Below are positions 149 through 44,959 of a stretch of DNA of 64,000 nucleotides, one piece after another (position 1 is the first letter of the stretch; each line of letters begins with the position of its first letter). Source of the DNA: Candidatus Pacearchaeota archaeon. GTDB lineage: Archaea > Nanobdellota > Nanobdellia > Pacearchaeales > GW2011-AR1. The notes under the pieces were generated by a model. The model ran no database searches and was not told the DNA's origin. It worked only from the letters and a program-made list of their open reading frames with translations. Location: NCBI GenBank assembly GCA_041659445.1, contig JBAZYG010000001.1, positions 381,624 through 445,623 on the forward strand, given 5' to 3'. The position numbers were made by a program, and so were the translations under genes.

Positions 149-1135
149 ATGCCAGAAAAGACTTTTGACATAAAATTTCTTAGAAAAGATTCTATTAATT
201 CTACAAATAAAAAAGAGATTATTGAAACTTCAAAGTATATAAAAGACTTCTCACAAATAAAAAATATAGTCGCCTCAGAAGATGATAAAAAGATAGACGA
301 TTTTTTTCAAAACAAGAAATGGGCTTCTGAATTTTTTAATACAATAAATTTGACACTCTGTTTTAATCCACTATCTGATAAAAATAACAAAGAAACATTT
401 GATTCATTCTTAGAATATTTGTATAGCCATTCAAATAGTATAGTAACAATTCCAAGTATAACTAACAAAATTATTTCCATAGATGATTACATAAAATTTA
501 TAGACTATTGTTATGATTTCCTTAAACAAAGAAATTCCAAATCACTATTTGTTCCAATATCAATGAGAATGTCTATGGATAGTATAAATAAATTAATAGA
601 ACATTATAGAAAAAAAGAATATTATTATATTTGGTTTGATTTTGAGGGAAAAGCAATAAATAAAAATACTTCTGCAAGAATAAATAGAATAAGAAGACTT
701 CTTGAACCAAAAGATTTTTTTAAAGAGTCAATATTTTATTTTACAAACATAAAAAGAGAAATCTTATCTAATATTAAAAGTCAAAATACATCTTCTTCAG
801 ATATACTCTCAAGTATTGGCGGTGCAAACATCATTGGAATTAATCGTGAGCCACAAAAATTCAATCCAAATGCAAAAACAGAACATATGGACCAACAAGA
901 AATATGGAAACACAAGGCAAGATTCTTTGATTCTGATTCTTATTATTATAAGAAATTTGACGAAGGAAAATTAGAACCAAAAAATATTAACATAACTAAT
1001 AATTCTAATAGGATTATGGATGAATTGAAAAAACAAACGGAAGTGTTTTTAGAAAAATTAAAAATAAAAGATTATATTATAAAAAAACCTATGATTTCAG
1101 AAAATCCATTTATATCAAAACTTCTCCTAAATTAA
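149..1135 (+). CDS. hypothetical protein (328 aa)
   Basis: Complete ORF in track; K/N-rich composition typical of this genome; no catalytic motif recognised; lies upstream of the AbrB-like/DUF262-HNH pair. Confidence 0.45.
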   Translation: MPEKTFDIKFLRKDSINSTNKKEIIETSKYIKDFSQIKNIVASEDDKKIDDFFQNKKWASEFFNTINLTLCFNPLSDKNNKETFDSFLEYLYSHSNSIVTIPSITNKIISIDDYIKFIDYCYDFLKQRNSKSLFVPISMRMSMDSINKLIEHYRKKEYYYIWFDFEGKAINKNTSARINRIRRLLEPKDFFKESIFYFTNIKREILSNIKSQNTSSSDILSSIGGANIIGINREPQKFNPNAKTEHMDQQEIWKHKARFFDSDSYYYKKFDEGKLEPKNINITNNSNRIMDELKKQTEVFLEKLKIKDYIIKKPMISENPFISKLLLN

Positions 1136-1136
1136 T

Positions 1137-1301
1137 TTAATTTTTCTCTTTAACTAAACAAATTTTATTTTTTTCTGCTTCAGCCTTAATTTGTTTTCCT
1201 TCTAACCTTGATTTTTCAACAGCTTCTTTAGGAAGTGTAACAATATACTTATAATAATCTTTTTCTTTCACCTTTTTTGAAAGAACTTTTATAATCTTCA
1301 T
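1137..1301 (-). CDS. small AbrB/MazE-like (SpoVT_AbrB swapped-hairpin) DNA-binding protein, 54 aa; below ORF-track size cutoff
   Basis: Hand translation of the minus strand gives MKIIKVLSKKVKEKDYYKYIVTLPKEAVEKSRLEGKQIKAEAEKNKICLVKEKN*; the pattern K.IKV...VTLPKE..E...L.eG..i........I.L.K matches the AbrB/MazE consensus; a palindrome lies 10-43 nt upstream of its start. Confidence 0.35.
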   Translation of the reverse strand: MKIIKVLSKKVKEKDYYKYIVTLPKEAVEKSRLEGKQIKAEAEKNKICLVKEKN

Positions 1302-1310
1302 AAATTAATG

Positions 1311-1344
1311 AGGTACCGATTATTTATAAATGTATGTGGTACCT
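1311..1344. promoter_or_regulatory. inverted repeat AGGTACC-N20-GGTACCT in the divergent intergenic region; candidate operator or hairpin
   Basis: Read directly: aggtaccgattatttataaatgtatgtggtacct; it sits between the minus-strand AbrB-like gene start (1301) and the plus-strand DUF262-HNH start (1382). Confidence 0.35.
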
Positions 1345-1381
1345 GAAGAAGATATAAATAATGTTCTGATTATGATTTAAT

Positions 1382-2578
1382 ATGGAAATACATCCTCATC
1401 CAAAGATATTATTAAAATTACATAGAAGAAGAGCTGATATAGAATTAAGTCCAGAAGAATATCAAAGAGGAAAGGTTTGGTCAAAAGATAAACAACAACT
1501 TCTTATGGATACAATTCTTAAAAAAATGCACATTCCTCCAATTTATTTTCGAGTTTTAGAAAATGGATATTATGAATGTGTTGATGGGCAACAAAGATGC
1601 ACGGCAGTATTTGATTTTTTTGATGATAAGTTTCCCCTCTCAAAAAAATATTCTCCTGAATTTGCGGGGAAATTTTTTAAAGAATTACCAACAGAAATAC
1701 AAGATAGATTTTATGATTACGAAATAATGGTTTTTGAAATAGTTAATGCTTCAGATGACGAAACAAAAGAGATGTTTAAAAGATTACAAAAAGGAATGCC
1801 CTTAACTGCTGGAGAAAAACTTAAAGCAGAAACAGGAAATATTAGAAGTTTTATTTTAGAACTAACAAAAACAAAGTTTTTCTCTGATGCAATTAATGTA
1901 AGAGACTATAGAGGTGCTTATTATCAAATGTGTTCTCAAATTTTGGCTCTTGAGATGTTAGGAATGAAAGATGTTAAATTCAAGATTTTAGAAGATATGC
2001 ACACAGAAAATAAAAATTTAGATTTAAATGGAAAAGCACCGACACAAGTAAAAAAAGTAATAAACTTTTTATCTCGTGCTTTTGAAACTAAAACTCCCGA
2101 ATTACATACGAGGGCGGGAATAGTTTCATTGTATCTTTTAATTTCTACTTTGATGAAAGAATATTCATTAAAAGATAAGGAAGATTTAATTAAAAATTTT
2201 GTTATTTATTTTCAGGACAAATTAAGAGAAACAGAAGAAAAAGAAAATAATCCAGAATTATTAAAATTTTTGAATGCAATAAGTCATTCATCTGATGGTG
2301 CAAATTCAATAAAAACCAGACACGAAATTTTAATGAATTATTTTTTATTATTTGCTAAAGATTTAGAACCATTAGATACAAATAGAGGTTTTACAGAAAT
2401 TGAGAGGATAGCAATTTATAGAAAAAACGAGGGTATTTGTCAGGAATGCAAACAAAAAGTAGAATATAATAATTTTCACGCAGACCACATAATTCCTCAT
2501 TCAAGAGGTGGAAAAACAACTCTTGAAAATGGGCAAGTTTTATGTAATAAATGTAATTTATCTAAAGGTGCTAATTAA
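1382..2578 (+). CDS. DUF262 (ParB/Srx-like, DGQQR motif) N-terminal domain fused to a C-terminal HNH endonuclease; GmrSD/BrxU-like candidate type IV restriction-type nuclease
   Basis: N-terminal YECVDGQQRCTAVFDFF (DGQQR signature of DUF262); C-terminal HADHIIPHSRGGKTTLENGQVLCNKCNLSKG (HNH His-Me finger with paired Cys/His). Confidence 0.7.
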   Translation: MEIHPHPKILLKLHRRRADIELSPEEYQRGKVWSKDKQQLLMDTILKKMHIPPIYFRVLENGYYECVDGQQRCTAVFDFFDDKFPLSKKYSPEFAGKFFKELPTEIQDRFYDYEIMVFEIVNASDDETKEMFKRLQKGMPLTAGEKLKAETGNIRSFILELTKTKFFSDAINVRDYRGAYYQMCSQILALEMLGMKDVKFKILEDMHTENKNLDLNGKAPTQVKKVINFLSRAFETKTPELHTRAGIVSLYLLISTLMKEYSLKDKEDLIKNFVIYFQDKLRETEEKENNPELLKFLNAISHSSDGANSIKTRHEILMNYFLLFAKDLEPLDTNRGFTEIERIAIYRKNEGICQECKQKVEYNNFHADHIIPHSRGGKTTLENGQVLCNKCNLSKGAN

Positions 2579-2843
2579 CTTTTTTAACATACATTACTTA
2601 TTTAACAAAGCCAAAATAGGGAAAACCTTTAAAAAGCTGTTTTCATTATATTTGATATTAGAAAGATATCACTATCACATTATAACATCATCATCACGCT
2701 CATTTTTTTAGCGAGTGATTACTTGTAAGAAATATAGGTATTTTTCTAAAGGGACTCTCAGTCCTTAACAAATTAAACACGGAGAAACAAAACATGGCTA
2801 AACTGAAATTAAAAATTTCGTTTAATCCATTTAGAAAATCAAA

Positions 2844-3998
2844 ATGGCAAAAGTAAGTCCAGTTTCAATAAAATATATGATACATGCGACTTTAGTTGCA
2901 GAAGGTGCTTTAGAAAAACCTGATGTAATCGGAGCTTTATTTGGACAAACAGAAGGATTGCTTGGAGCTGATTTAGAAATGAGAGACCTTCAAAAAGAAG
3001 GAAAAATCGGCAGAATTGAAGTAGAGTTAGAGAGAAAAGAAAAGCAAACTATTGGAAAAATAAAAATCCCAACTGCATTAGACCAATCTGAAACAACATT
3101 GATAGCTGCTGCTATTGAAACTATTGAAAGAGTTGGACCAAGCGATGCTCAAATTGAAATTGATCGAATTGAAGATGTAAGAGGTAGTAAAAGAGACTAC
3201 ATTATTGATAGAGCAAAAAAATTAATGTCTCAAATTGAAGGCTCTGCAAATTCAAGGGAAATTTCAAATGAAATCAAAGATTCTGCTAAAATTGCAGACA
3301 TCAAAGAATATGGGCTAAGCAAACTTGCTTCAGGTGATCTTTCAGGTGAAGACATAATTGTAGTTGAAGGAAGAGCAGACGTTGTAAATCTCTTAAAAGC
3401 AGGGATAAAAAACGTTGTTGGTATGAACGGAACAAAACTTCCTGAAGAAGTAAGAGAACTAAGCAAGGAAAAAGAAATAACTCTTTTTGTCGACGGAGAT
3501 AGAGGAGGCAAATTGATTATTCAAAATGCAATGGAAAACGCAAGAATTTCATATATTGTAATCGCACCAGATGGAAAAGAAGTTGAAGAACTAACTGGTA
3601 AAGAAATTTTAATGGCTTTAAGAAAAAAAATTCCTGCAAATGAATTTTTCTCAGATAACAAAAGAAACTTCAGAGATAATAAAAGAGAAAATTCTAGGCA
3701 GGAATTTAATTTTATTTTAGATTCTGATTCAAAACAAAAATTAAAAGAAATTTCAAAAGACAATGAAGGCTCTAAAAAAGTAATAATGCTAAATTCTGAA
3801 TTAAAAGAAATCAAATCAACAGGTTTGAAAATGCTTGAAAACACCTTGAGAAGAATGCATGAAAAACCAGCAATAATAATTCTTGATGGAAGTGCTACAA
3901 AAAATATAATTTATTCTTGTGAAGAAGAAGGAATTCAATTGATTGTTGCCAAAAACTTTTCAACAACAGATACGAAAATAAAATTGTTAAGTTTTTAA
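2844..3998 (+). CDS. dnaG: archaeal-type DNA primase DnaG (Toprim)
   Basis: N-terminus KYMIHATLVAEGALEKPDVIGALFGQTEGLLGADLEMRDLQKEGKIGRI is the conserved archaeal DnaG start; Toprim-like IVVEGRADVVNL and FVDGDRGG (DxD) motifs. Confidence 0.85.
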   Translation: MAKVSPVSIKYMIHATLVAEGALEKPDVIGALFGQTEGLLGADLEMRDLQKEGKIGRIEVELERKEKQTIGKIKIPTALDQSETTLIAAAIETIERVGPSDAQIEIDRIEDVRGSKRDYIIDRAKKLMSQIEGSANSREISNEIKDSAKIADIKEYGLSKLASGDLSGEDIIVVEGRADVVNLLKAGIKNVVGMNGTKLPEEVRELSKEKEITLFVDGDRGGKLIIQNAMENARISYIVIAPDGKEVEELTGKEILMALRKKIPANEFFSDNKRNFRDNKRENSRQEFNFILDSDSKQKLKEISKDNEGSKKVIMLNSELKEIKSTGLKMLENTLRRMHEKPAIIILDGSATKNIIYSCEEEGIQLIVAKNFSTTDTKIKLLSF

Positions 3999-4040
3999 AA
4001 CTTACATTAAATTTAAATAACAATTTTTCTTGTTTTTATT

Positions 4041-4964
4041 ATGATTGAGTATTTTAAGAAAATAAAAGACGAAGAAAGAATTAAAAAAATTGAAAGTTTT
4101 GAAGAAGGATGCTGGGTTAATGTTACAAACCCTTCTGACGAAGAAATTGAATTTTTAGTTAAAGAATTTAGTTTAAGTAAATCAAATTTAATTGATGGAT
4201 TAGATATTCATGAAAACCCTAGATTTGAAATAGATAACAAAAAAACATATATTTATTTGACAACTCCTACTGAAAATATATCTCAAGAATATGATTCTTC
4301 ATTTTTAATTATTTATGGAAAAAATCATTTCATTACTTTTTCAAAAACTTCTTTAGAAATATTTGAAAGAATTTTAAACGAAAAATCAAGATTCATGAGC
4401 TTCTTGATTTCAAAAAACCTTGTTAAGGTTTTGAATTTAGTTTCAAAACTATTTGAAGAATCTATACAAAAAATAAGAAAAGAAATAAGAAAAAATAGAA
4501 ACAAATTAAGTCAACTTAAAACAAAAGACATTGAAGACTTGATAAATTATGAAGATAAATTAAATGAATATATTTCTGTTTTTGAAGCAAACATAAGCAC
4601 ATATAAAAGAATTTTACGAGATAAGTCATTGCATTTCTTGAAAAAAGATGAACAAAATCTAGAAGATGCAATTATTGATTTAAATCAAACCCTTAATTTA
4701 TGTAAACAAACTCTTAAATCTATTTCAAACGCAAGAACATATTATTCTACAAAATTATCAAATGATTTGAACAAAACTGTTACTGCTTTGACAATTGTGA
4801 CTATTTTTATTTCAATACCGACGCTGATTGCAAGTATTTATGGTATGAATATATCTCTACCTTTTCAAGATGGAAAATATACTTTTGTTGGACTAATGTT
4901 ATTAATTCTTGCAATTGTTGGAACTTTGTTTTTGGTTTTGAAAAAAGCTAGATTAATAAAATAA
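4041..4964 (+). CDS. corA: CorA-family Mg2+/Co2+ transporter
   Basis: C-terminal two-TM region with the YGMN signature (IASIYGMNISLPF) and the basic tail after TM2 typical of CorA. Confidence 0.8.
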   Translation: MIEYFKKIKDEERIKKIESFEEGCWVNVTNPSDEEIEFLVKEFSLSKSNLIDGLDIHENPRFEIDNKKTYIYLTTPTENISQEYDSSFLIIYGKNHFITFSKTSLEIFERILNEKSRFMSFLISKNLVKVLNLVSKLFEESIQKIRKEIRKNRNKLSQLKTKDIEDLINYEDKLNEYISVFEANISTYKRILRDKSLHFLKKDEQNLEDAIIDLNQTLNLCKQTLKSISNARTYYSTKLSNDLNKTVTALTIVTIFISIPTLIASIYGMNISLPFQDGKYTFVGLMLLILAIVGTLFLVLKKARLIK

Positions 4965-5053
4965 AAATTAGGGTTTGCTTATTAACTATAAAGTAGTAAA
5001 CTAACGAAAAGTTTATAAAAGAATATGCTATTCTGATATCCAAGATAAATAAA

Positions 5054-5638
5054 ATGGCAAACAAAAAAACTTTAGAAAAGAAAATTTGGAGAGTGATTCC
5101 TGTAGAAGCACATAAACTTCCTTATATAAATAGGATGAGGATTCTTGCAAATAATGTTAGTTTTAAAGATGGAAATTCAAGATACAGAATGCCTCTTCCT
5201 GAGACTGACTTTGAAAAAGAAATATATGAACAATTTCAAGAACTCGTAGGTTCTCATGATATTGCAAGAATAGAATATGTTGTTCCTTTAATTAAAGAGT
5301 TTGTTATAGATAATAAACAAAATGAAGCAGCCATATTATTTAGATATCAAATGGACTTTGCTATCGGAAAAGGTTTTCAAATGAAAGAAATGGTTTTCTA
5401 TGGAAAGAAAGGAGAAAAACTAAAAGAAATTTATGAAGATCATGCTTGGACTGAACCAAGTTCTCTTGATTATCCTCTCTCACAAATGGCAAAAATCCAT
5501 ATGGATCCAATGTTGTATTTGTTAAGAGGAAATATATTAAGACCCATGTTTCCTGACTATCATGGACTAGAAATGGATGACAAAACAATTTCAATCACAC
5601 CAGAATATGGCGATAAAATAACTCTTGACAAAAGATAA
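5054..5638 (+). CDS. hypothetical protein (194 aa)
   Basis: Complete ORF; no motif recognised. Confidence 0.4.
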   Translation: MANKKTLEKKIWRVIPVEAHKLPYINRMRILANNVSFKDGNSRYRMPLPETDFEKEIYEQFQELVGSHDIARIEYVVPLIKEFVIDNKQNEAAILFRYQMDFAIGKGFQMKEMVFYGKKGEKLKEIYEDHAWTEPSSLDYPLSQMAKIHMDPMLYLLRGNILRPMFPDYHGLEMDDKTISITPEYGDKITLDKR

Positions 5639-5718
5639 ATTGAGTCTGAAAGTAAAAGTGTAAACCTAAATTCTTTCAACCCAAAACTTCTATAAAACTT
5701 TTTTTCCTTATCTTAATC

Positions 5719-6510
5719 ATGACAATCTACAAAATAAAATTTGGGCCAGCAGGATTGGGTTCTGTAAAAGATGCAGAAAAAACTTTGTTATTTTTAAAAG
5801 AAAATGGGCTTGAAGCATGTGAAATTGCATTTACTTATGGTGTTTATATAAATAAAGAAGAGGCTGAAAAAATTAGCAAGATTGCAAAAGATTTAGGAAT
5901 TTCATTATCAATTCATGCGCCTTATTGGATTAATTTAAATTCAGAAGAACCTGAAAAAATTGAAAAAAGCAAACAAAGAATTGTTAAATGTTTGGAAATT
6001 GGAACTTATTTGAATGCAAAATGTGTTGTTTTTCACGCAGGTTTTTATGGAAAAAAATCCAAAAAAGAAACTTATGAAAATATAAAAAATGAAATTTTGA
6101 AATTGCAAGAAATTAAAAAGAAAAATAAATACACGCCTGAACTTGCTCCTGAAACAATGGGAAAAATAAATGTTTTTGGAAGCATTGAAGAAATAGCATT
6201 GCTTGTTAAGGACACAAAATGCTTTGCATGTATTGATTTTGCACATATTCTGGCACGTTCCAATGGAGATTATAAATTTAAAGAAACATTAAGATTATTT
6301 GAAAATTTAAAAGAATTACATATTCATTTTTCTGGAATAGATTACGGAATTAAAGGAGAAAAAAATCATAAAAAAACTTCAGATGAAGAATTACATAAAT
6401 TAATTTCAAATCTTCCAAAAAACAAAAATACCGTCGTGATAAATGAATCTCCAGACATGATTAATGATTCTATAAATGCTTTAAAAATTTTTAAAAAATT
6501 AAATCAATGA
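5719..6510 (+). CDS. nfo: endonuclease IV-like AP endonuclease (xylose-isomerase-like TIM barrel, AP_endonuc_2 family)
   Basis: SIHAPYWINLNS resembles the Nfo HAPYLINL signature; VVFHAG and ETMGK metal-ligand-like segments; length 263 aa fits the family. Confidence 0.6.
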   Translation: MTIYKIKFGPAGLGSVKDAEKTLLFLKENGLEACEIAFTYGVYINKEEAEKISKIAKDLGISLSIHAPYWINLNSEEPEKIEKSKQRIVKCLEIGTYLNAKCVVFHAGFYGKKSKKETYENIKNEILKLQEIKKKNKYTPELAPETMGKINVFGSIEEIALLVKDTKCFACIDFAHILARSNGDYKFKETLRLFENLKELHIHFSGIDYGIKGEKNHKKTSDEELHKLISNLPKNKNTVVINESPDMINDSINALKIFKKLNQ

Positions 6511-6626
6511 AAATGTCCCTCTTTGTAAGGACACTTAGTTAAACTATGTTCACTTTAAAATGACAAACTTTATAAAGCATTCTTCCAATACTAAGATTAC
6601 AGAAAACAAAGTTTTCTGACAAATAA

Positions 6627-7853
6627 ATGAAAAACAAAAAGCAAATGAAAACTAGAAATGTAATGTTTTCTTTAGCTACTCTTGCTATTGCCTTATTTTT
6701 AGTAGCAACTGTTAGTGCTGGTGAAATCACAAACGATTACACTGTTGAAATTGAAAACATCAATGCTTATAACAACGTAGTTAGTGTTGTTGCTGGTGAA
6801 ACAATAAAAATTGAAGTTTACTTCAATTCACTAGTTGATGATTCTGACGTAACTGTTGAAGCAGAAATCGAAGGCGAAAAAGTTAAAGTTGATACAATGA
6901 CAAGTTCTTTCGATGTTGAAGCAGGTTTTGCATACAGAAAAGTTTTGACTTTAAAAGTTCCTTATGAACTTAAAGACCAACTTTCTGATATGGTTTACCT
7001 TAACATTGAAATAGATGGTAAAGACCACAAAACAGAACTTGAACAAGTTAAACTTTTAGTTCAAAGACCTTCATACAACGCAGTAGTGAAATCTCTTTCA
7101 GTTCCTAGTTCAATTGAAGCTGGTGACAAACTTTCAGTTGAATTCGTTCTTAAGAACATGGGATACAATGATTTAGATGATGTTTATGTGAAAGCTAGCA
7201 TTACAGAATTAGGATTAAGTCAAGGACCTGTTTGGGTTGGAGACTTAGTTACTATGGAAGAATGTAACGACGATGATTGTGATAAAGACACTGTTGCTGG
7301 AAAATTATATTTAGATGTTCCATTCAGTGCCAAAGAAGGTGTTTATGACCTTGAATTCACAGTTTACAACGACGACACAGAAACTACTGAAGTTAAGCAA
7401 ATAGTAATCAAGAATGACTTTTCAAACGAAGTTATTGCTACAAACACTGAAAAAACTGTTGCTGTAGGAGAAAAAGCTGATTTTACTTTATTATTAGTTA
7501 ACCCTAGTGATAATGTTAAGGTCTACACAATTTTAATTGAATCTGACGGAATAACAACTGAACTTGAAGAAAGTGTAGTTGCTGTCGGTGCTGGTTCAAG
7601 TAAGACTGTACAATTTTCTGCTTTAGCAAAAAGTGAAGGCTCAAATGACTTCACAGTAAGTGTTCTTTCAAACGGAAAGGTTGTTCAAGTTGTTGACTAC
7701 AATTTAACTGCAGAAGGTAAGAAAGTTAACTCTACAGTTATTTTATCAATAATCTTGGCAATAATCTTTGTAGTATTATTAGTTGTTCTTATTGTTCTAT
7801 TAGCTAAGAAACCAGAAAAAAACACAGAAGACTTTGGTGAAAGTTATTACTAA
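6627..7853 (+). CDS. secreted acidic cell-surface protein with a C-terminal TM anchor (S-layer/CARDB-like)
   Basis: N-terminal signal peptide MKTRNVMFSLATLAIALFLVATVSA; D/E/T/V-rich beta-type repeats; C-terminal hydrophobic helix VILSIILAIIFVVLLVVLIVLLAKK followed by a basic stretch (archaeal surface-protein anchor). Confidence 0.55.
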   Translation: MKNKKQMKTRNVMFSLATLAIALFLVATVSAGEITNDYTVEIENINAYNNVVSVVAGETIKIEVYFNSLVDDSDVTVEAEIEGEKVKVDTMTSSFDVEAGFAYRKVLTLKVPYELKDQLSDMVYLNIEIDGKDHKTELEQVKLLVQRPSYNAVVKSLSVPSSIEAGDKLSVEFVLKNMGYNDLDDVYVKASITELGLSQGPVWVGDLVTMEECNDDDCDKDTVAGKLYLDVPFSAKEGVYDLEFTVYNDDTETTEVKQIVIKNDFSNEVIATNTEKTVAVGEKADFTLLLVNPSDNVKVYTILIESDGITTELEESVVAVGAGSSKTVQFSALAKSEGSNDFTVSVLSNGKVVQVVDYNLTAEGKKVNSTVILSIILAIIFVVLLVVLIVLLAKKPEKNTEDFGESYY

Positions 7854-7900
7854 TTTTTCTTTTTTATTTTTTTATTTTTTTTATACTTTCACCCTTTCTT
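7854..7900 (+). terminator. T-tract (archaeal oligo-T terminator-like) after the surface-protein gene
   Basis: taatttttcttttttatttttttattttttttatac directly after the stop at 7853. Confidence 0.3.
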
Positions 7901-7974
7901 TTTTAAGATTTAATTCAACAAAATATATCATCAAGGATAATTATATTTAAAAACAAAAACAAACAAGAAATAAA

Positions 7975-8307
7975 ATGGAAATAATTAAGCAAGTGGAAAT
8001 TTGTGATTGGAAGGGATTAAACTATGAAATTGCACTTAGAGCTCAAGGCGGTGGAAGAAGTTTTGTTTTTGCAAACATACTTGATGGTTTCTTTTTATTA
8101 AATAAAAGATTTCATATGGGCCAAGTAGAAGCATTTGGAATAGCAAAAGACATTGAAGAAGCAGATAAAAGATTATATAACAAAGCAAAAGAAATTGCAC
8201 AAATCCATAGGAAAGAATATGAAACTGCAAAAAATGAAGAAAATTATATTATTGAAATTGTTGATTTAACAAAAAGAGGAAAATTAGAAAAAGAATTAGA
8301 AGAATAA
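7975..8307 (+). CDS. hypothetical small protein (110 aa), paralog of the next gene
   Basis: Complete ORF; C-terminal segment ...DKRLYNKAKEIAQIH...IVDLTKRGKLEKELEE parallels ...DKKAYENAKGEMFEKL...LIDLTERGKQSKLE in 8315..8677. Confidence 0.4.
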   Translation: MEIIKQVEICDWKGLNYEIALRAQGGGRSFVFANILDGFFLLNKRFHMGQVEAFGIAKDIEEADKRLYNKAKEIAQIHRKEYETAKNEENYIIEIVDLTKRGKLEKELEE

Positions 8308-15261: not shown

Positions 15262-15361
15262 TTTTAAATTTTTGTTTGAAAGATCATTCAACAAATTTTT
15301 TTCTCCATTAATTATCTTTGAAAAAACCTTTAAAAAGATTATGTGTTCTGTAGAATATATT

Positions 15362-15442
15362 GCCCAGATGGCGGAGTGGTTAACGCACACGATTGGAAAT
15401 CGTGGTCCTCTGGACTCCTAGGTTCGAATCCTAGTCTGGGCG
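15362..15442 (+). tRNA. tRNA-Ser (anticodon GGA), type II with a long variable arm
   Basis: Manual fold: acceptor GCCCAGA/TCTGGGC, anticodon stem CACGA/TCGTG, loop TTGGAAA (U33, GGA, A37), variable arm GTCCTCTGGACTC, T-arm CTAGG-TTCGAAT-CCTAG, discriminator G. Confidence 0.8.
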
Positions 15443-15500
15443 TTTTAAATTTGAGAAAGATTAAAACAAAATTTATATACCTTATTTTCTAAGTAAAGTT

Positions 15501-15677
15501 ATGAATAAAAAAATAAAAAAGATTAAAGATGAAGAAATTGAATTAGCAGAACAACATATTGAACTTGCAGAACAATTAGTTTCTGAAAAAGATAAAAAAG
15601 CAAAAGAACAAAATAACAAACTTCTCAAAGATGCAGCATTTTGCCTTGAAGCAGATTTAGAAGAATATTCTGAATAA
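15501..15677 (+). CDS. small hypothetical coiled-coil protein (58 aa), below ORF-track cutoff
   Basis: Hand translation MNKKIKKIKDEEIELAEQHIELAEQLVSEKDKKAKEQNNKLLKDAAFCLEADLEEYSE*; it sits between two tRNA genes; weak support. Confidence 0.2.
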   Translation: MNKKIKKIKDEEIELAEQHIELAEQLVSEKDKKAKEQNNKLLKDAAFCLEADLEEYSE

Positions 15678-15740
15678 TTCTTTCAAAAACAAAAACTTCA
15701 ATAAAGAAACCTTTAAAAGTTAGATAATACATTCAATTTC

Positions 15741-15816
15741 AGCGAGGTGGAGCAGCCTGGAGTGCTCGTCGGGCCCATAACCCGGAGGTCGTGTGGTTCA
15801 AATCCCACCCTCGCTA
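15741..15816 (+). tRNA. tRNA-Met (anticodon CAT), initiator-like (A1:U72, three G:C pairs at the base of the anticodon stem); T-arm irregular
   Basis: Acceptor AGCGAGG/CCTCGCT, D-arm GAGC-AGCCTGGAGT-GCTC, anticodon stem TCGGG/CCCGG with loop CCCATAA; the T-arm folds only as a 4-bp GTGG/CCAC stem with an 8-nt loop TTCAAATC. Confidence 0.6.
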
Positions 15817-15906
15817 TAATTTTTTAAAAAATTTCAAAAACAAAAACAACGAATTCAAAAGGATTATAATCTAAAGGAGATTAATTAAATTTACAAAACA
15901 TTAATA

Positions 15907-17412
15907 ATGAAAGATAAAAGAGGCCTTTCAGACGTTATAACAACTATTTTGTTAATTTTATTAGTTGTTATAGCTTTGGGAATTGTTTCTGTTATTCTTT
16001 TTTCCTTTGCAAAAAATAATTCAGAAAAAGCAGAATTAAAAGTTTCTTTGCTAAGTGAAAATTTTAAAATAAAAAAAGTATTAATTGATTCACAGGACCC
16101 TTCAAAAATTAATATTACTTTTTGTTGTGCTACAGGTTCATATCAAATTAAAAAACAAACAGAAGAAAATAATACAGAATTAGATATTGGACTAGTCATA
16201 GATCGTTCTGGAAGTATGAGACAAAGTGGATGGACAATTAATTTAGACTCAAGTCTTATTTCTTCGTATAATTTTTATAATTTAAATGTCCCAAGAAATT
16301 CTTATAGTTCTTCACAAACTTTTAATGTAAATTCTAGCAACACACGAATTGCAATTTTGTTGATGTGGGATAAAAAACAAGGATATAATGGTTCTGAAGG
16401 TTCAGAATTTTCACTTAATTTAAGAAGACCTTCAGGAGAATGGATTTTTGGTTCAGGTCAACCAAACACTGGGGGAAAAGTTGATCCCCCAGATTCTCTG
16501 GGAAACAGCAACGAATATTTTAATGGAATTTCTTCAAAACCCCAAATAATTTATATTGAAAACCCACAAGTAGGAAATTGGGAAGTTAAAGTATGGGGTT
16601 GGAATTTAAGACCGTCGACAAATCCTCCAAATTCCCAAAATGTAAATATTTCAGTTTTCAAGGGAAATGCTCAACAAATTTCTAAAAACCCAACAATTAT
16701 TTCAATCGACGCTGCTAAAAATTCTTCAAAAAGTTTTGTTAATTCTAAAAAAGATGATGAACAAATAAATTATGTTGTTTTTGGAAATTATGGAGAATTA
16801 AAACAAACTTTAACATCAAATCTTACAAAATTAATAAATGCTATTGACAACACTGGAATGGAAGGAGGCACAGCAATACAAACAGGAATTGAAACTGCTG
16901 AAGAAGATTTACTAAATAATGGTAGAGAAAATTCTGAAAAAATAATGGTAATCTTAACAGATGGACAAAATGACGCAGGCTCTGAAATTGTTATTCAAAC
17001 AGCACAAGAAGTCAAAGACAATGGAATTATTATTTTTACAATTGGTTTAACAGGATTTGTAGACGAGAACATGCTTAAACAAGTTGCAACTAAACCAGAA
17101 TATTACAATTATGCACCTGATGCTTCGAATTTAAATTTTATATTTGAAGAAGTAAGAAGAGATATCACAAATTTATTTGAAAAAAATGAAAAATTATCAG
17201 ATTATTTTCTTTTAATTTTTTATAACAATACAAACAGCTATGAATACAAACTTGACGACCCTTCTTTAAAACCACTTCAAACAAAAGAATATTTTTTTGA
17301 TTTAACTGGAAAATTGACAAATGTCACAAGAATAGAAATTTATCCTGTTATTTTAGCAAAAAATGGAAAAGAAGTAATTGGACAACTTCTTCAAACATTT
17401 GAGATTGCATAA
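15907..17412 (+). CDS. pilin-like protein with an archaeal class III signal peptide and a von Willebrand factor A (vWA) domain
   Basis: MKDKRGLSDVITTILLILLVVIALGIVSVILF (KRG plus hydrophobic segment); MIDAS-like DIGLVIDRSGSM (DxSxS), later TDG and GIIIFTIGL segments typical of a vWA fold. Confidence 0.6.
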   Translation: MKDKRGLSDVITTILLILLVVIALGIVSVILFSFAKNNSEKAELKVSLLSENFKIKKVLIDSQDPSKINITFCCATGSYQIKKQTEENNTELDIGLVIDRSGSMRQSGWTINLDSSLISSYNFYNLNVPRNSYSSSQTFNVNSSNTRIAILLMWDKKQGYNGSEGSEFSLNLRRPSGEWIFGSGQPNTGGKVDPPDSLGNSNEYFNGISSKPQIIYIENPQVGNWEVKVWGWNLRPSTNPPNSQNVNISVFKGNAQQISKNPTIISIDAAKNSSKSFVNSKKDDEQINYVVFGNYGELKQTLTSNLTKLINAIDNTGMEGGTAIQTGIETAEEDLLNNGRENSEKIMVILTDGQNDAGSEIVIQTAQEVKDNGIIIFTIGLTGFVDENMLKQVATKPEYYNYAPDASNLNFIFEEVRRDITNLFEKNEKLSDYFLLIFYNNTNSYEYKLDDPSLKPLQTKEYFFDLTGKLTNVTRIEIYPVILAKNGKEVIGQLLQTFEIA

Positions 17413-17486
17413 TTTTAAAAACAAAATCTTTAAAATAGGTCAGATTATTCTATTTTAAGAAGAATTAAACAAAATTGCTTAATACT

Positions 17487-17567
17487 GCCCTCGTCGCATA
17501 GTGGTTATTGCACCGGTTTGCTAAACCGGGCCCTTTGGGCGCGCAGGTTCAATTCCTGCCGAGGGCG
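17487..17567 (+). tRNA. tRNA-Ser (anticodon GCT), type II
   Basis: Acceptor GCCCTCG/CGAGGGC, anticodon stem CCGGT/ACCGG with loop TTGCTAA, long variable arm GCCCTTTGGGCGC, T-arm GCAGG-TTCAATT-CCTGC. Confidence 0.8.
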
Positions 17568-17948
17568 TTTTCTTGTTTAGTTTACATTATAATAATACTT
17601 ATAAATAAAAAATTTGTTTTAAAATCATGGAACACAAAGTAAAATTAAACTTTTATAAAGGTATAGGAGATGTTAATCTTGTTCAACTAGAAAAAGATAT
17701 CCTAAAAAATCTCAGTGGAAATCATTTAAGAGGATTCCTGTTTTTGCGATACTCCAAATGAGAGTATATTTAGAAAGATCATAAACTATTTTGAGGATTA
17801 TTCTTCATTTAGAATATCTTTTTCACCTATGAAGGAAAAGAGAAATCAAATATTTTATAGGATTGAATTCTCGATAAATTTTTTCTGGTAAACTTAAATT
17901 AGAGTATTTTCGCTCCAATTATTCAAGACAAAGAAGTCTCGAGAGATT

Positions 17949-19771: not shown

Positions 19772-20098
19772 TTATCTAACATCTTTTAATTCTTTTTTAT
19801 CCCACCAAGAATAATCTGGATAATAATAATGGCATAAAACTTGAAACCCAATGAAATCAAAAGTAGGATTATCAAATTTTTCATTATAATAATCTTCCCA
19901 AATATTATTAATAACCCTATCTAAAAGATTATTGAAAATTAATTTATCTGATAAAGTTGGTTTAAAAGGAGTTGGTTTAAAAGATGTAACTTTTTTAATT
20001 TCTTGAATACCCTTCATACTCCTAAAATTCTCAGCACTTCTACACATTCCATCAAAAACTTTTTTTCGAAATTCTTGCTTTGTTAATTCTTTACTCAT
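19772..20098 (-). CDS. hypothetical protein (108 aa)
   Basis: Complete ORF; W/Y-rich; no motif recognised. Confidence 0.35.
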   Translation of the reverse strand: MSKELTKQEFRKKVFDGMCRSAENFRSMKGIQEIKKVTSFKPTPFKPTLSDKLIFNNLLDRVINNIWEDYYNEKFDNPTFDFIGFQVLCHYYYPDYSWWDKKELKDVR

Positions 20099-20138: not shown

Positions 20139-21806
20139 TTAATTTTCGTCACAATTTGTTTCATACATTATTCCATCTGAAAAAGCCATCCAACAATTTC
20201 CAACTGAATAATTTCCTGTCAAACCAATATTATTTTGAGAAATTAAATTTCCTGAGAAAGAAATATCTCCGTTAACATCTAATTCACTTTGAGGAGTTGT
20301 TGTTCCAATTCCAACTTTTCCACCCATAATTGCCATTGTGTTTGCTTGACTTACAATAGTTCCTGATTGATCATTTAACCCTATTCCTACTGAATTACTT
20401 CCTGAAACTTCTATTCCTTTACCCATTGCGACAGAGTAAGGTCCTGATGCAATTGTATTTCTTCCAAAAGATGTTGAAGCTTCTCCAGATGAAACAGTCA
20501 CCAAACCCATTGCTGTTGAACCATAACCTGAAGAAATAGTTCCAGAGCCCATTGCTGTTGAAGCAGTTTCAGATGCAGTTGTAGAATATCCCATTGCTGT
20601 TGAATAATCTCCTAAAGCTTTTGTGTAACCCCCAGTTGACATTGAACTATAACCTGAAGATTCAGTGTATTCTCCCATTGCTGTTGAATAATATTGCGAA
20701 GATTCTGAACCATAACCTGTTGCTGTTGAATAATATCCTGATGAAATTGTTGCACCACCCATTGCAATTGCACCAATTTCAGAGGCTAATGTGCTTGGTC
20801 CTATTGCTGTTGAATATAAATTTGAAGCATTTGCATAATAACCCATAGACATTGAATGCTTATTTGGATTAATTAAAAGAGTATTTTCACCAACATAAAA
20901 ATTTCCTGTAAATTTCCCATCACCGATGACAGTCAATGCATTTTGGGGATTGTTTGTTTTTATTCCAACATTTCCATTATTATTTACAACAAATGCCTTT
21001 GAAGAATTTGCTCCTGGACTAAAATACAAACTTTCATCTCCTGCAGATGTAAAATCTATTTTAAAGATTTCTTTATTTCCAGAACGAATATTAAAACTAT
21101 CTGCTAAAATAAATGCAAGATATCCACCATTGTAATCACCCAAAATAAAATCATTTGTAGAATGAATACTTCCATTAACATCTAAATTATATTGTGGGTT
21201 GCTTGTTCCAATACCAACATTTCCCCCCATAATTGCCATTGTATTTGCTTGAGAAACATTCAAATTATTTTGATCATTCAATGCGATAGCAAAACTATAA
21301 TCTCCTCCTGCAATAATTTCTCTACCCATTGCTGTTGACAAAAACCCAGAAGCTGTTGTTGCAAAACCAGTCGCTGTTGAAGAAGCTCCTGAAGATTTTG
21401 TTAAATCACCTAATGCTATTGAAGAATCTCCTGAAGCATTTGCATAATGTCCTAATGCTATTGAAGAATCTCCTGAAGAGAATGCATGATTCCCAACAGC
21501 TACTGAAGAAGGCCCTAAAGCTGTTGATGAATATCCTAAAGCAACAGAATATAATCCCGAAGCTGTTGAGGTTCCTGATGAAATTGAATAGGTATTTGTA
21601 TTAACAAAAAAATCAGTTCCTCCAACACTGAAATTGTAATCTCCTAAAACAACATTATGATTTGAGCCAACGTAAGGAACATAACTTGAATTATAATTTG
21701 ATGAAATTAATTTATTATTTGTCTTTGCTAAAGAAAAAGAAGATAAACATAAAATCAAGATTAAAACAAAAACCATTCCAAAAAAATATTTATTTTTACA
21801 TTTCAT
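20139..21806 (-). CDS. secreted adhesin-like protein with Hep_Hag/YadA-head-type repeats and tail-fibre-like NVGIGT motifs
   Basis: Signal peptide MKCKNKYFFGMVFVLILILCLSSFSLA; repeated SSIALGHYANASGDSSIALG / SVALGYSSTALGPSSVAVG units (N/S-S-[IV]-A-[LV]-G periodicity); twice-repeated MAIMGG[NK]VGIGT..PQ..LDVNG motif. Confidence 0.6.
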   Translation of the reverse strand: MKCKNKYFFGMVFVLILILCLSSFSLAKTNNKLISSNYNSSYVPYVGSNHNVVLGDYNFSVGGTDFFVNTNTYSISSGTSTASGLYSVALGYSSTALGPSSVAVGNHAFSSGDSSIALGHYANASGDSSIALGDLTKSSGASSTATGFATTASGFLSTAMGREIIAGGDYSFAIALNDQNNLNVSQANTMAIMGGNVGIGTSNPQYNLDVNGSIHSTNDFILGDYNGGYLAFILADSFNIRSGNKEIFKIDFTSAGDESLYFSPGANSSKAFVVNNNGNVGIKTNNPQNALTVIGDGKFTGNFYVGENTLLINPNKHSMSMGYYANASNLYSTAIGPSTLASEIGAIAMGGATISSGYYSTATGYGSESSQYYSTAMGEYTESSGYSSMSTGGYTKALGDYSTAMGYSTTASETASTAMGSGTISSGYGSTAMGLVTVSSGEASTSFGRNTIASGPYSVAMGKGIEVSGSNSVGIGLNDQSGTIVSQANTMAIMGGKVGIGTTTPQSELDVNGDISFSGNLISQNNIGLTGNYSVGNCWMAFSDGIMYETNCDEN

Positions 21807-21861
21807 CTTGTTTAACTTTATGAAAGCCCTTATTTAAACATTTTTATACTGTAATATATTT

Positions 21862-24234: not shown

Positions 24235-24900
24235 ATGCTCGAAAAAAAGTTTTTGAATTTTGCAAAAAAGATTTTCTTATTTGGAATTATAAATTATTTT
24301 AATTTGAGTTGTCAAACACAAATTTTCCATGAAGAAAATAATTCAAAAGAAAATGAAAAAGAAACCTTTCAAATAAATAGTCCTTGGTACTCAAATGAAA
24401 GAATCTTTGAAAGAGTTTACTTTTTTGATGATTTTTTTGATAAAAAAGAAAAAGATTATGGGATTCCAAAAGGATTGTTAAAAGGACTTGCAATGCAAGA
24501 AAGTCTTGGAAATCCTTTAAGTGTAAGCTATGATGGAGGGGTTGGAGAATTTATGCTCCAGCCAGGAACTGCAAGAAAATACGGATTAAAAGTTTACGGA
24601 AATTCAAATAAAACTGGGGCAGATACAACTCATGCAAAAGAAATGAAAAAATTATTAAAAAAATACAATTATGATTATTCAAAATTAATAAAAATCGACG
24701 AGAGATTTGATATTAAAAAAAGTTCAGATGTTGCTGCAAGATGTTTAATTGATTTGCATAAAGGCAAAGGTCATAATTCTTGGAATAAAGCTTTATCTGC
24801 ATATAATCAAGGAACACCTGCATTTTATGCTTCAAGAACAAAACATGTAAAAAAAATAAGAGAATATCAAGAGTATTATAATGAAAGAGATGGAGATTAA
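24235..24900 (+). CDS. secreted protein with an SLT (soluble lytic transglycosylase, lysozyme-like) domain
   Basis: Hydrophobic N-terminus; LAMQESLGNPLSVSYDGGVGEFMLQPGTARKYG matches the SLT catalytic region (E-S catalytic Glu, then A/G-x-G-L-M-Q-x-x-P-x-T-A). Confidence 0.55.
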   Translation: MLEKKFLNFAKKIFLFGIINYFNLSCQTQIFHEENNSKENEKETFQINSPWYSNERIFERVYFFDDFFDKKEKDYGIPKGLLKGLAMQESLGNPLSVSYDGGVGEFMLQPGTARKYGLKVYGNSNKTGADTTHAKEMKKLLKKYNYDYSKLIKIDERFDIKKSSDVAARCLIDLHKGKGHNSWNKALSAYNQGTPAFYASRTKHVKKIREYQEYYNERDGD

Positions 24901-39546: not shown

Positions 39547-41310
39547 ATGGAAGCAAAAAAATACCTTTTTCCAGTAATGATTTTATTAAGTTTATTTTTG
39601 ATTTGCTTTGTTAGTTCTGCCACAGAATTAACAATGTTTCATGTAAATTCTGTAGAAGATAATTCTAGTTTTATAGATGACTCTTATGCAATGGATATGC
39701 AAAATGATTTCTTATATATTGGGGGCAATGTTCAAGGCTTTCAAATTGTTGATGTTTCTGATTCTGCAAATCCAGTTGTAACAGGATACTTGAATACTTT
39801 AAACGGAATAATTGATTTAAAAGTCCAAGGAAATTATGTTTATGCTGTTTCTCTTACTAGTCCTAGTGACTTGAATATAATTGACATTTCTGATTCTGCA
39901 AATCCTGTAATTACAAACACAGTTACTTTAAACGGACAAGCTTCTGGAATAGATGTTGATTCTTTAGAAAGTTATGCTTATGTAGTTTATTCTGATAATT
40001 CAAATTTGGAAATAGTAAATCTTAGTGATAATTCAATAATAACTCCTTCATATGATTTAACAACAACTGCAAATGATATTTTAGTTGATGGAAATTATGC
40101 TTATGTTGTTTCAAGTGCTTCTGAATTAAAAATTTTAGATATTACTGATTTATCAAGCATTACTCAAGTTTCAATTTTAACAGATGACGGCACAACAGCA
40201 TTGAATGGGGCTTGGTCAATTTTCAAAGAAGGAAATTACTTATATATTTTATCTTCAGAGGGTTTTGAAATAATTAACGTCTCTGACCCTTTAACTCCAA
40301 CTTTAATGAAAGCAGTTTACAAAACAGATGCAATTTTAAACAACCACGATGTTAACGGAATTTTTGTAAAAAATAATATGGTCTATCTTTCATTAACCTC
40401 TCCAACACAAGGAATTGTAGAAGAAATTTCTCTTTTAGGAATCCTTACTGTTGTTCCCCCATCACAAATTTTTTTAATAATTGATTCAAGCACATCAAAT
40501 AACATTTTATTAGATACTCCTCGTGAAATAATTGTAAATGGAAATTACGCTTTTGTAACATCCTCAGATTTAATATTAACAAAAACTGGATTGGAAGTTA
40601 TAGGTATTGATGATTATACTCCTGTAATTGAAATTATTGCTCCAACTAATGCTACAACAATTTACCATAATGTTACAGCAGGTGCATTGAGTTTTGAATT
40701 TAAAGCAAAAATAACAGATGATTTTTCTGGAATAAAAAATGTAATATTTTCATTAAAAACACCAAATGGAGTGATTACAAATTATCCTTTAACTTCTCTT
40801 GGAAATGATGAATATTCTGCAATTGTTTCATTGACTGCTTATGGAACTTATGAAGCAAGTTTTGAAGCAAATGATTTTGCAACAAGAGGAAAAACAGAAT
40901 ATACTACATTTACTATATCTGAACCTGTTGTATCTTCAGGTGGTGGTGGCGGTGGTGGAGGTTCTTGTTCATATAATATAAATTATGATTGGAAATGTTC
41001 TAGTTGGGGTGAATGTGTTGATGGAACTCAAACAAGAACTTGTAATAATTTAAATAATTGTGGAAGCACTTATGGAAGACCAGACACAGAACAAACATGT
41101 ATTATTGAAATAATTCCTGAAACTGTGAACAACGCAACTGAAACAAATACTGCCGAGGGTGGAAGAGGATTAACAGGTGCAGTTATTGGTGGAACTTCAA
41201 GAGTATTTAGTTCTCCTTGGTTATACATACCGTTATTAGTTTTTGCAATTCTAATCGCTGGGTGGTTGTTGTTAGGATTATTCAGAAAGAAAGACAAAAA
41301 GAAAAAATAA
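39547..41310 (+). CDS. secreted cell-surface protein with LVIVD-like beta-propeller repeats, a Gly8 linker and a C-terminal TM anchor
   Basis: Signal peptide; recurring GNY[AVL]Y[VI][VL]S and I[IV]D[IV]SD..NP repeat units; GGGGGGGGS linker; C-terminal PWLYIPLLVFAILIAGWLLLGLF plus RKKDKKKK. Confidence 0.5.
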   Translation: MEAKKYLFPVMILLSLFLICFVSSATELTMFHVNSVEDNSSFIDDSYAMDMQNDFLYIGGNVQGFQIVDVSDSANPVVTGYLNTLNGIIDLKVQGNYVYAVSLTSPSDLNIIDISDSANPVITNTVTLNGQASGIDVDSLESYAYVVYSDNSNLEIVNLSDNSIITPSYDLTTTANDILVDGNYAYVVSSASELKILDITDLSSITQVSILTDDGTTALNGAWSIFKEGNYLYILSSEGFEIINVSDPLTPTLMKAVYKTDAILNNHDVNGIFVKNNMVYLSLTSPTQGIVEEISLLGILTVVPPSQIFLIIDSSTSNNILLDTPREIIVNGNYAFVTSSDLILTKTGLEVIGIDDYTPVIEIIAPTNATTIYHNVTAGALSFEFKAKITDDFSGIKNVIFSLKTPNGVITNYPLTSLGNDEYSAIVSLTAYGTYEASFEANDFATRGKTEYTTFTISEPVVSSGGGGGGGGSCSYNINYDWKCSSWGECVDGTQTRTCNNLNNCGSTYGRPDTEQTCIIEIIPETVNNATETNTAEGGRGLTGAVIGGTSRVFSSPWLYIPLLVFAILIAGWLLLGLFRKKDKKKK

Positions 41311-43838: not shown

Positions 43839-43871
43839 AATATTAATAAACTTATTTTTTGTATTTATTAT

Positions 43872-44408: not shown

Positions 44409-44409
44409 C

Positions 44410-44928: not shown

Positions 44929-44959
44929 TATTTAAAAATATAGAAGATTTAGAATAAAA

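Follow-up and report, generated by a model that had tools for sequence, protein, structure and literature searches.

The YadA-type head is textbook material for bacterial pathogens. Trimeric autotransporter adhesins (TAAs, type Vc; YadA, BpaC, BoaA, EibD, UspA1 and CbpF) combine a 14-residue repeat, which forms a beta-roll head, with a neck, a stalk and a C-terminal anchor barrel. Their heads are homotrimers, and in the solved heads of YadA type (1P9H, 3S6L, 7O23) each monomer folds into its own beta-roll, three of which are packed together. Two further groups are relevant here: a family of proteins annotated as 'tail fiber domain-containing' from Bacteroidota, the candidate phyla radiation (CPR), Omnitrophota and others, which have an N-terminal signal and end in Peptidase_S74, and the fibres of phages and giant viruses (PHROG families 3269, 9942, 372 and 18345; Klosneuvirus, Pithovirus). 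DPANN archaea, Pacearchaeota among them, combine tiny genomes with a life that is presumably spent attached to other cells; to our knowledge, hardly any of their contact-making proteins are known. Here we describe a putative fibre protein encoded in a stretch of 64,000 nucleotides from a Candidatus Pacearchaeota archaeon (contig JBAZYG010000001.1, positions 381,624 to 445,623), hereafter called the window.

The fibre protein is the product of a complete open reading frame (ORF) of 555 aa at 20139..21806 on the minus strand, with an ATG start and a TAA stop codon (20139-20141). It is already in databases, as a hypothetical protein, being 100% identical to the NCBI entry 'MAG: hypothetical protein WC812_02815 [Candidatus Pacearchaeota archaeon]', encoded on a contig of 486,529 bp, and its heads and connectors belong to a large, database-annotated family. 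What is new is an architecture that joins a signal peptide to two heads and has neither an anchor nor a chaperone domain, and an unannotated C-terminal module that is repeatedly found adjacent to integrase genes; both the module and the lack of anchoring or chaperone domains had been overlooked by a first-pass annotation made from the DNA sequence. We are highly confident that this is an exported protein with YadA-type heads which is neither an autotransporter nor an S74 fibre. That it forms a trimeric exported surface fibre with an adhesive role is the explanation we favour, with some reserve.

The repeats of the protein are strictly regular. Units of the type [SY]S[TIV]A[LMIV]G start at aa 86, 93, 100, 114, 128 and 142 in block 1 and at aa 331, 345, 359, 373, 387, 401, 415, 429, 443 and 457 in block 2, i.e., at a spacing of exactly 14 residues, to which block 1 adds a 7-residue half-period. 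The string SSIALGHYANASGDSSIALG, quoted in the first-pass annotation, lies at aa 114-133. Residue autocorrelation at lag 14 was 0.46 in block 1 (z=10.6) and 0.41 in block 2 (z=11.2), measured against composition-preserving shuffles, so that the periodicity is real and not merely a matter of low complexity, the outcome under which the earlier proposal would have fallen. The two blocks correspond to head module 1 (aa 72-175, 21282..21593, minus strand), with about 7.5 turns of 14 residues, and head module 2 (aa 317-476, 20379..20858, minus strand), with about 11.5 turns. Both are covered by the Pfam family YadA_head (PF05658, formerly Hep_Hag), which matched the protein at E=9e-33 and 112.4 bits against a cut-off of 25, in 10 stretches. 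Sequence matches in the PDB were BpaC 7o23 (1.7e-13, aligning over aa 332-493 of the fibre protein), BoaA 3s6l (1.5e-7, deposited under the name 'Hep_Hag family'), and also CbpF, YadA 1p9h and EibD. The two head-plus-connector units of the protein share 44% identity over 169 aligned positions.

An AlphaFold2 monomer model built on 63 aligned relatives agreed with this assignment. The predicted local distance difference test score (pLDDT) exceeded 90 over aa 80-210 and 320-515, including head module 1 and reaching 94-99 in head module 2, with the short regular strands of a beta-roll; it was below 50 over aa 25-42, 224-235 and 253-313. In a Foldseek search against the PDB, ranks 1-9 were all TAA heads, with BoaA 3s6l superposed at a root-mean-square deviation of 1.9 A over 118 columns (template modelling (TM) score 0.69 relative to the target). 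This makes the assignment of the heads secure, and the Hep_Hag/YadA-head identity put forward in the first-pass annotation holds on sequence and fold alike; the 'beta-prism' mentioned there does not, as the model shows a left-handed beta-roll of the YadA type.

Since the solved heads of YadA type are trimers, and since relatives of the protein end in the trimer-forming domains Peptidase_S74, C1q or Peptidase_G2, the fibre protein is probably a trimer as well. One might instead envisage a monomeric secreted beta-helix protein whose likeness to trimeric adhesins only reflects the repeat. The monomer model reaches high confidence in the absence of partners, the fold list includes, at lower ranks, left-handed beta-helix enzymes with a single-chain fold (GlmU, LpxD, carbonic anhydrases), and neither a coiled coil nor another recognised trimerisation domain is present. 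However, given the solved heads, a good monomer model is expected either way; the enzymes come later in the list with far weaker scores (E above 0.006, TM at most 0.2) and are themselves trimers, and the C-terminal domains of the relatives are specific to trimers. We consider a monomer very unlikely.

In contrast to TAAs, with which it shares the repeat, the beta-roll head and probably also the trimeric state and the adhesive function, the fibre protein lacks the anchor barrel, the neck and the stalk. The YadA_anchor barrel (PF03895) gave no Pfam match at E<=1, no Pfam family of neck or coiled-coil stalk matched, and the AlphaFold2 model contains no such helix. The NCBIfam models Ata, EmaA, YadA and BimA matched the repeats only, at 17-51 bits against cut-offs of 600-3000. 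On these grounds we rejected a trimeric autotransporter, a result that fits an organism without a bacterial outer membrane. Export would proceed by a plain N-terminal signal, unlike that of TAAs, and the polarity is probably opposite: by analogy to S74-type and phage fibres the C-terminus would be free or distal, whereas the C-terminus of a TAA is anchored.

The 'tail fiber domain-containing' proteins are the closest relatives and have the connector and the N-terminal signal in common with the fibre protein, whose head-plus-connector arrangement occurs in two full copies (block 2 was the one tested). They differ at the C-terminus, where the fibre protein has a 42-aa two-cysteine module in place of Peptidase_S74. 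No Pfam match to Peptidase_S74 (PF13884), C1q or Peptidase_G2 was found in the protein. A truncated S74-type gene was considered and rejected: tblastn with eight S74-bearing C-termini retrieved connectors only and no remnant in the window.

At the N-terminus, aa 1-27 (21726..21806, minus strand) consist of MKCKNK, a hydrophobic core of 19 residues and SLA|KT, where the predicted cleavage would fit the -3/-1 rule. The segment at aa 8-26 is the sole hydrophobic one of the protein (Kyte-Doolittle 2.59, maximum elsewhere 1.01); the hydropathy scan revealed no further segment able to span a membrane, and in the AlphaFold2 model the signal segment forms the only helix (residues 6-25). The order proposed in the first-pass annotation, a signal peptide followed by repeats of about 14 aa, is thus borne out. 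A lipobox signal was rejected, as the residues before Cys20 read L-I-L instead of L-[AS]-[GA], and so was a class III (pilin) signal, as no [KR]-[GA] cleavage motif precedes the hydrophobic core.

Each head is terminated by a connector of about 37 residues with the pattern NDQ..VSQANTMAIMGGNVGIGT..P..LDVNG. Connector 1, NDQNNLNVSQANTMAIMGGNVGIGTSNPQYNLDVNG, covers aa 176-212 (21171..21281, minus strand) and connector 2, NDQSGTIVSQANTMAIMGGKVGIGTTTPQSELDVNG, aa 477-513 (20268..20378, minus strand). They contain the two copies of MAIMGG[NK]VGIGT..PQ.[NE]LDVNG, at aa 190-212 and 491-513, that the first-pass annotation had pointed out; both are present as described, apart from the first reading PQYNLDVNG, and a third, degenerate copy had escaped notice. 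The latter, NGNVGIKTNNPQNALTVIGDG at aa 277-297, belongs to an NVGI[K]T motif, NGNVGIKTNNPQNALTVIGDGKF, spanning aa 277-299 (20910..20978, minus strand), which was found by regular expression and matched phrog_3269 at E=0.003. Between connector 1 and this motif lies a poorly conserved middle region (aa 213-276, 20979..21170, minus strand; pLDDT mostly <50) which relatives match patchily. The end of head and connector together form an 82-aa block with the consensus ..STAMG[RK]GIE..G.YSVAIALNDQ.GT.VSQ.NTMAIMGGNVGIGT..P...L.V, and 21 columns are invariant among 15 aligned blocks. The part that closes each head, ..AIALNDQ.GT.VSQ.NTMAIMGGNVGIGT..P...L.V, is about 45 aa long. Block 2 is 52-60% identical to family members, and the two blocks of the fibre protein are 59% identical to each other and up to 66% identical to bacterial blocks. 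NVGIGT-type motifs occurred 205 times, in 81 of the 120 listed homologues. Connectors, middle region and C-terminal module gave no Pfam family at E<=10.

Sequence comparison supports the 'tail-fibre-type' label that the first-pass annotation had given to the NVGIGT block. The whole protein matched phrog_3269 ('tail protein') at 8.6e-8 in a short, motif-level alignment. Connector fragments alone matched PHROG 3269, 9942, 372 and 18345 (tail or tail fibre) at E 1e-6 to 3e-3: connector 1 matched 3269 and 9942 at E=2.3e-5 each, and the fragment aa 486-555, which holds connector 2, matched phrog_3269 at E=1e-6 and three more tail or tail-fibre families. One further match was to a family of unknown function; every PHROG family with an assigned function was a tail family. 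Tblastn of the connector against phage genomes gave weak matches (E 1e-3 to 0.5), the majority of them in genes whose annotation is tail or tail fibre, e.g., the distal tail fibre of Thermus phage phiFa and the fibres of several cyanophages. With the whole protein, tblastn had no match at 1e-5 in 50,697 phage records, a negative result that probably stems from the masking of the low-complexity repeats. In IMG/VR, 17 viral contigs carried a relative of the block, 6 spanning heads and connector and 11 the NVGIGT part, and Foldseek against viral models (BFVD) gave 40 matches at E<=1e-3, including 'LbR_YadA-like' proteins of Caudovirales as well as proteins of giant viruses.

The closest relatives comprise more than 4000 proteins, the best being 40% identical over 73% of the length; identities were 29-61% in local alignments over 22-89% of the fibre protein. 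Named relatives are mostly 'tail fiber domain-containing protein', chiefly from Bacteroidota, and most of the listed ones end in the Peptidase_S74 intramolecular chaperone. The contig of the best non-self relative carries CsrA, a bacterial gene. Scanning GTDB, one genome per species, with the 82-aa block yielded 145 relatives, of which the best 77 loci were analyzed in detail. Archaea account for 24 of these 77: six Woesearchaeota, two other Pacearchaeota, one Altiarchaeota, one euryarchaeal single-cell genome, ten Thermoplasmata/Thermoplasmatales (closed chromosomes among them) and four Methanosarcinales. The remainder are Bacteroidota, Omnitrophota, candidate-phyla bacteria, Proteobacteria, Elusimicrobia and others. 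Many archaeal relatives have a signal-like hydrophobic N-terminus and varied C-termini. We found no discussion of archaeal YadA-head proteins, frequent as they are in genomes, in the literature searched. Gene neighbourhoods were not conserved among the loci compared, and aa 28-71 of the fibre protein (21594..21725, minus strand; pLDDT 39-64), the N-terminal part of the mature region, has no recognisable relatives, BLASTP against the 120 homologues and the 77 GTDB loci giving nothing below E=0.02.

Three observations on these relatives stand apart. The C-termini of five archaeal or CPR proteins (L009, L013, L005, L064 and P0057) share another short motif, G.IYYD.....L..C.G..W..(V/L), which is reminiscent of a fibritin-foldon-like hairpin and suggests a set of interchangeable miniature C-terminal ends. 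Four Thermoplasmatales genomes (L036, L043, L062, L077) have in common a compact version of 307-361 aa with a signal, one NVGIGT motif, one short head, a connector and the end ...FY(L/V)KTSEGWKRA.LETWES. Finally, PF26696 is found in the precomputed annotation of many relatives, including P0010, P0027, P0029, P0043 and P0047; the fibre protein lacks it.

The first-pass annotation had called the gene 'probably horizontally acquired', which is partly supported. The best full-length relatives include bacteria. The 82-aa block, about 55% identical, and the repeats are too poor in signal for a phylogeny, and a nearest-neighbour permutation test was used instead: the nearest neighbour was archaeal for 10 of 26 archaeal blocks, against 8.4 +/- 3.2 expected under label permutation (P=0.36). 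Judged by their sequences, archaeal and bacterial blocks are interleaved and do not group by domain, and the head-plus-connector module is promiscuous across domains of life and viruses. Against this part of the proposal stand the frequency of the family in archaea, the native codon usage of the gene and the C-terminal module, which has so far been seen only on low-G+C contigs, of which two are demonstrably archaeal, and next to genes of viral type. The G+C content of the gene (0.332) is above that of its surroundings (about 27% throughout the window) because of the Gly/Ala/Ser-rich composition of the protein, which has 16% Ser and 14% Gly. At third codon positions its G+C content (GC3) is 0.126, compared with 0.153 +/- 0.028 in 43 other ORFs, and its synonymous-codon score is -0.777, compared with -0.746 +/- 0.072. 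Both values are within the host range, so a recent transfer of the gene is not supported. It is plausible that the modules were acquired horizontally over long time spans; the gene itself is an old mosaic and not a recent import.

The C-terminal two-cysteine module, DISFSGNLISQNNIGLTGNYSVGNCWMAFSDGIMYETNCDEN, covers aa 514-555 (20142..20267, minus strand) and contains Cys538 and Cys552. The last 44 residues had no match among the 120 listed homologues or the 77 GTDB loci, the module is absent from every other ORF of the window, and it lies outside all Pfam and NCBIfam models. When 1.84 billion cluster representatives were searched exhaustively with phmmer (E<=1e-3), 53 matches were returned, of which 49 non-self ones were judged true and three repeat proteins false positives. 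All 49 lie at the extreme C-terminus of their proteins and are 44-70% identical to the module. The consensus reads xxNxTGxxxxNxxxGLTGNYSVGNCWxAYSGGIMYxTNCTxx, with invariant G, N, C, G, N and C columns and near-invariant T, G, W and T; a full-length alignment confirmed G528, C538, G545 and C552. The cysteines form a Cys-x13-Cys pattern, 14 positions apart, in 50 of 50 sequences, and may be joined by a disulfide (Cys538-Cys552 in the fibre protein). In 46 of 50 sequences the chain ends exactly 3 residues past the second cysteine, as it does in the fibre protein (residue 555). An N-[YF]-[ST] sequon is kept in 49 of 50 (N-Y-S at aa 532-534 of the fibre protein). Modelled alone, the module formed a three-stranded beta-meander (pLDDT 72, around 80 in the core), for which Foldseek against the PDB found nothing below E=4.

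Mean column identity was 59% in the module and 8% across the whole carrier proteins. An N-terminal hydrophobic segment is present in 38 of the 44 full-length carriers and missing from 6. Most carriers have no Pfam domain at all; recognisable passengers are LVIVD propellers (4), Laminin_G_3 (2), CBM_4_9 (2) and YadA heads (2, the fibre protein included), and in many carriers an NVGIGT motif stands just ahead of the module. Across proteins that otherwise differ widely, the module is the part conserved best, and its position at the end of the chain is fixed. This pattern argues for a nucleus of folding or trimerisation, or for a conserved element of attachment; a variable receptor-binding tip is disfavoured, because such a tip would be expected to vary. 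The fixed C-x-x-x end might, more speculatively, mark a C-terminal processing or attachment signal. A functional analogy is offered by the foldon of T4 fibritin, also a tiny C-terminal beta module that is better conserved than the shaft it ends. Unlike the foldon, to which it bears no similarity in sequence and no detectable one in fold, the module has Cys-x13-Cys and two conserved N-x-S/T sequons.

A metagenome scan located 50 loci with the module, nearly all at 27-37% G+C. In two of them archaeal markers lie beside the module gene, namely SBDS and proteasome alpha in L116, and in L126 PheRS alpha and beta, which we read as archaeal-type by size and domain content. At 8 distinct loci (L125, which equals L079, and L088, L091, L096, L097, L098, L099 and L100) the start of a tyrosine integrase gene coincides or overlaps with the stop codon of the module gene, or lies no more than a few tens of bases from it. 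These integrases are 55-61% identical to one another, and the copy in L125 matches PF00589 at 1e-31. L125 (locus 1..8201) is contig Ga0315273_10000605, 38,419 bp, which is also in IMG/VR as IMGVR_UViG_3300032516_000074. Its integrase is followed by a weak head-tail-adaptor-like match (E=8e-4) and an HNH endonuclease, further on by a tail tube (PF18906 8e-25; phrog_290 5e-29) and a weak tape-measure-like match (E=3e-4) and, after the tail genes, by another ORF of the fibre family. Most of the integrase-adjacent contigs break 50-70 codons before the stop of the module gene, and in L096 the upstream fibre reading frame is interrupted.

Two readings fit this arrangement. Temperate tailed viruses may integrate at the conserved 3' end of cellular module genes, which would explain both the integrase at the junction and the assembly breaks. 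Alternatively, the viruses may carry module-bearing fibres of their own, which fits the six carriers without a signal segment. We tentatively propose that the module is a dedicated terminal domain of DPANN-type archaeal surface proteins that is shared with their temperate tailed viruses, a proposal that we regard as doubtful at present.

The same data bear on whether the fibre protein is itself a viral tail fibre, either left by a degraded provirus or captured from a tailed virus of DPANN archaea and domesticated, in which case it would still serve as a receptor-binding fibre of virus type. Such an origin would account for the likeness of the connector to PHROG tail and tail-fibre families, for head-plus-connector proteins on IMG/VR contigs and the abundance of YadA-like heads in BFVD models, for the module directly upstream of an integrase in 8 loci and the integrase, tail tube, weaker adaptor- and tape-measure-like matches and additional fibre-family ORF of the 38-kb contig, and for the 6 of 44 carriers without an N-terminal hydrophobic segment, which virion proteins would likewise lack. 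Phage and giant-virus fibres do share the NVGIGT block and the head fold with the fibre protein. However, the fibre gene is chromosomal and has no viral neighbours: no homologue of the integrase, of the tail tube or of any other ORF of the module-linked viral contigs was found in the 64-kb window, and the flanking genes encode DtdA, TauE and membrane proteins. The fibre protein also has a signal segment, which a virion fibre assembled in the cytoplasm would not need, its codon usage is native, and the integrase adjacency is equally explained by provirus integration at the 3' end of cellular genes. A viral tail fibre is therefore unlikely.

An adhesive role was the suggestion of the first-pass annotation, which had proposed cell-cell attachment, and for us, too, it is a conclusion by inference. 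The protein could instead be a non-adhesive structural or environmental one, such as an envelope or sheath component or an ice- or mineral-binding beta-roll with flat Ser/Thr/Ala-rich faces. Some homologues give sub- or near-threshold matches to LbR_Ice_bind, the grass antifreeze beta-roll, the Lolium ice-binding protein appears low in the fold list (E=1.6), the Ser and Gly content is high and the repeats are flat and regular, and no ligand-binding domain is recognisable. Yet the fibre protein itself has no LbR_Ice_bind match, its best sequence and fold matches are all adhesin heads, and other module carriers bear lectin-like, carbohydrate-binding or LVIVD propeller passengers, which point to binding functions. 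We see little chance for a non-adhesive role.

The adhesive fibre that we favour may be pictured as follows. The protein would be exported by the Sec pathway of the archaeon, as supported by the lone N-terminal hydrophobic segment and by the like start of 38 of the 44 module carriers. Three chains would assemble side by side into a rod, each contributing two left-handed parallel beta-roll heads with 14 residues per turn, and the connectors would take the role of the neck and coiled-coil stalk of bacterial adhesins. The C-terminal module would nucleate or cap the assembly with its putative disulfide-stabilised hairpin. As anchor, barrel and autoproteolytic chaperone are all missing, the rod would have to be held at the surface by an uncleaved signal segment or by non-covalent binding to the envelope, from where it would mediate adhesion to other cells or surfaces.

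Several points weigh against this picture. There is no anchor to retain the protein at the surface, and other surface proteins of the window have a C-terminal transmembrane helix and a basic tail that are absent from the fibre protein. The trimer is proposed by analogy, the role of the module as a nucleus is argued from its conservation pattern, and aa 213-316 as well as the extreme termini are poorly modelled. N-glycosylation sequons number 8 against 12.2 +/- 2.9 expected, and the N-C-[ST] sequon found in 46 of 50 module sequences is missing from the fibre protein, which ends in TNCDEN.

The locus fits a DPANN-type archaeon. Directly upstream of the fibre gene, on the same strand, lies an archaeal-type D-aminoacyl-tRNA deacylase (DtdA, PF04414, 1.6e-52), and the window further encodes SMC, IleRS, ArgRS and RtcB as well as proteins with the N-terminal domain of archaeal type IV pilins and, at 43.7-50.5 kb, a locus for pilus assembly. 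Together with the identical Pacearchaeota protein in the NCBI database, these neighbours confirm the archaeal context noted in the first-pass annotation. The sequence TTTAAATA (21831..21838, minus strand), centred about 28 nt upstream of the ATG, could serve as the TATA box of a leaderless or near-leaderless mRNA; the evidence is weak, as strings like TATA are common by chance at about 27% G+C. A downstream ORF of 108 aa (19772..20098) was considered as a fibre chaperone and dropped: it had no Pfam match and no similarity to the gene downstream of the best homologue, and its synteny with the fibre gene was kept in none of the fetched loci. A stretch of 2.2 kb (15361..17568, plus strand), some 3 kb away from the fibre gene, contains three tRNA genes (Ser-GGA, Met-CAT, Ser-GCT), with no integrase nearby.

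Several other proteins of the window stand out. The product of 15907..17412 (plus strand) has an archaeal pilin N-terminus and a VWA domain, and the type IV pilus locus (43689..50482, plus strand) comprises pilin-like ORFs, a T2SSE ATPase and two T2SSF membrane proteins; both are additional surface machinery. A 221-aa protein (24235..24900, plus strand) contains a lytic transglycosylase SLT domain (PF01464, 5.4e-15), found here in an archaeon, and may act on the peptidoglycan of a bacterial partner. An LVIVD beta-propeller surface protein (39547..41310, plus strand; PF08309, 1.7e-22) ends in a transmembrane helix and a KKDKKKK tail; as the four LVIVD proteins elsewhere end in the two-cysteine module, the same passenger occurs with two C-terminal endings. 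The 843-aa product of 54713..57244 (minus strand) has a signal-like N-terminus, a Bacteroidota-type sorting domain of the type IX secretion system (Por_Secre_tail, PF18962, 2.4e-11, aa 759-835) and a dockerin-like DINGDQVTNTLD string. The 805-aa product of 57391..59808 (plus strand) has no Pfam match; it starts with a signal or anchor, contains repeats of about 270 aa and a region rich in Cys, and ends in a transmembrane helix and a basic tail; tblastn gave only a weak 25-aa match between it and the C-terminus of the fibre protein (E=1, not significant).

Taken at its plainest, the fibre protein shows that the YadA-type head does not depend on the autotransporter pathway of bacteria: here it is free-standing behind a plain predicted signal peptide, and it is widespread in archaea, candidate-phyla bacteria and viruses. 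The connector and the module, neither of which has a Pfam or NCBIfam model, could become profiles for cataloguing such fibres. That module and integrase repeatedly lie side by side, in one contig along with tail genes, gives a concrete connection, open to testing, between uncultured tailed viruses and these archaea. Should none of this hold up, the fibre protein would still be a correctly identified, fairly ordinary member of a large, repeat-rich family of surface proteins. If the fibres of the viruses themselves carry the module, adhesins and viral fibres would share a pool of modules, and the archaeon would attach via a fibre of virus type; if instead the viruses integrate beside cellular genes, the DNA encoding the module would be a chromosomal integration site of temperate tailed viruses. 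Either way, the sequence of the module could be used to link uncultured viruses to their DPANN hosts and to find the proteins by which these symbionts attach.

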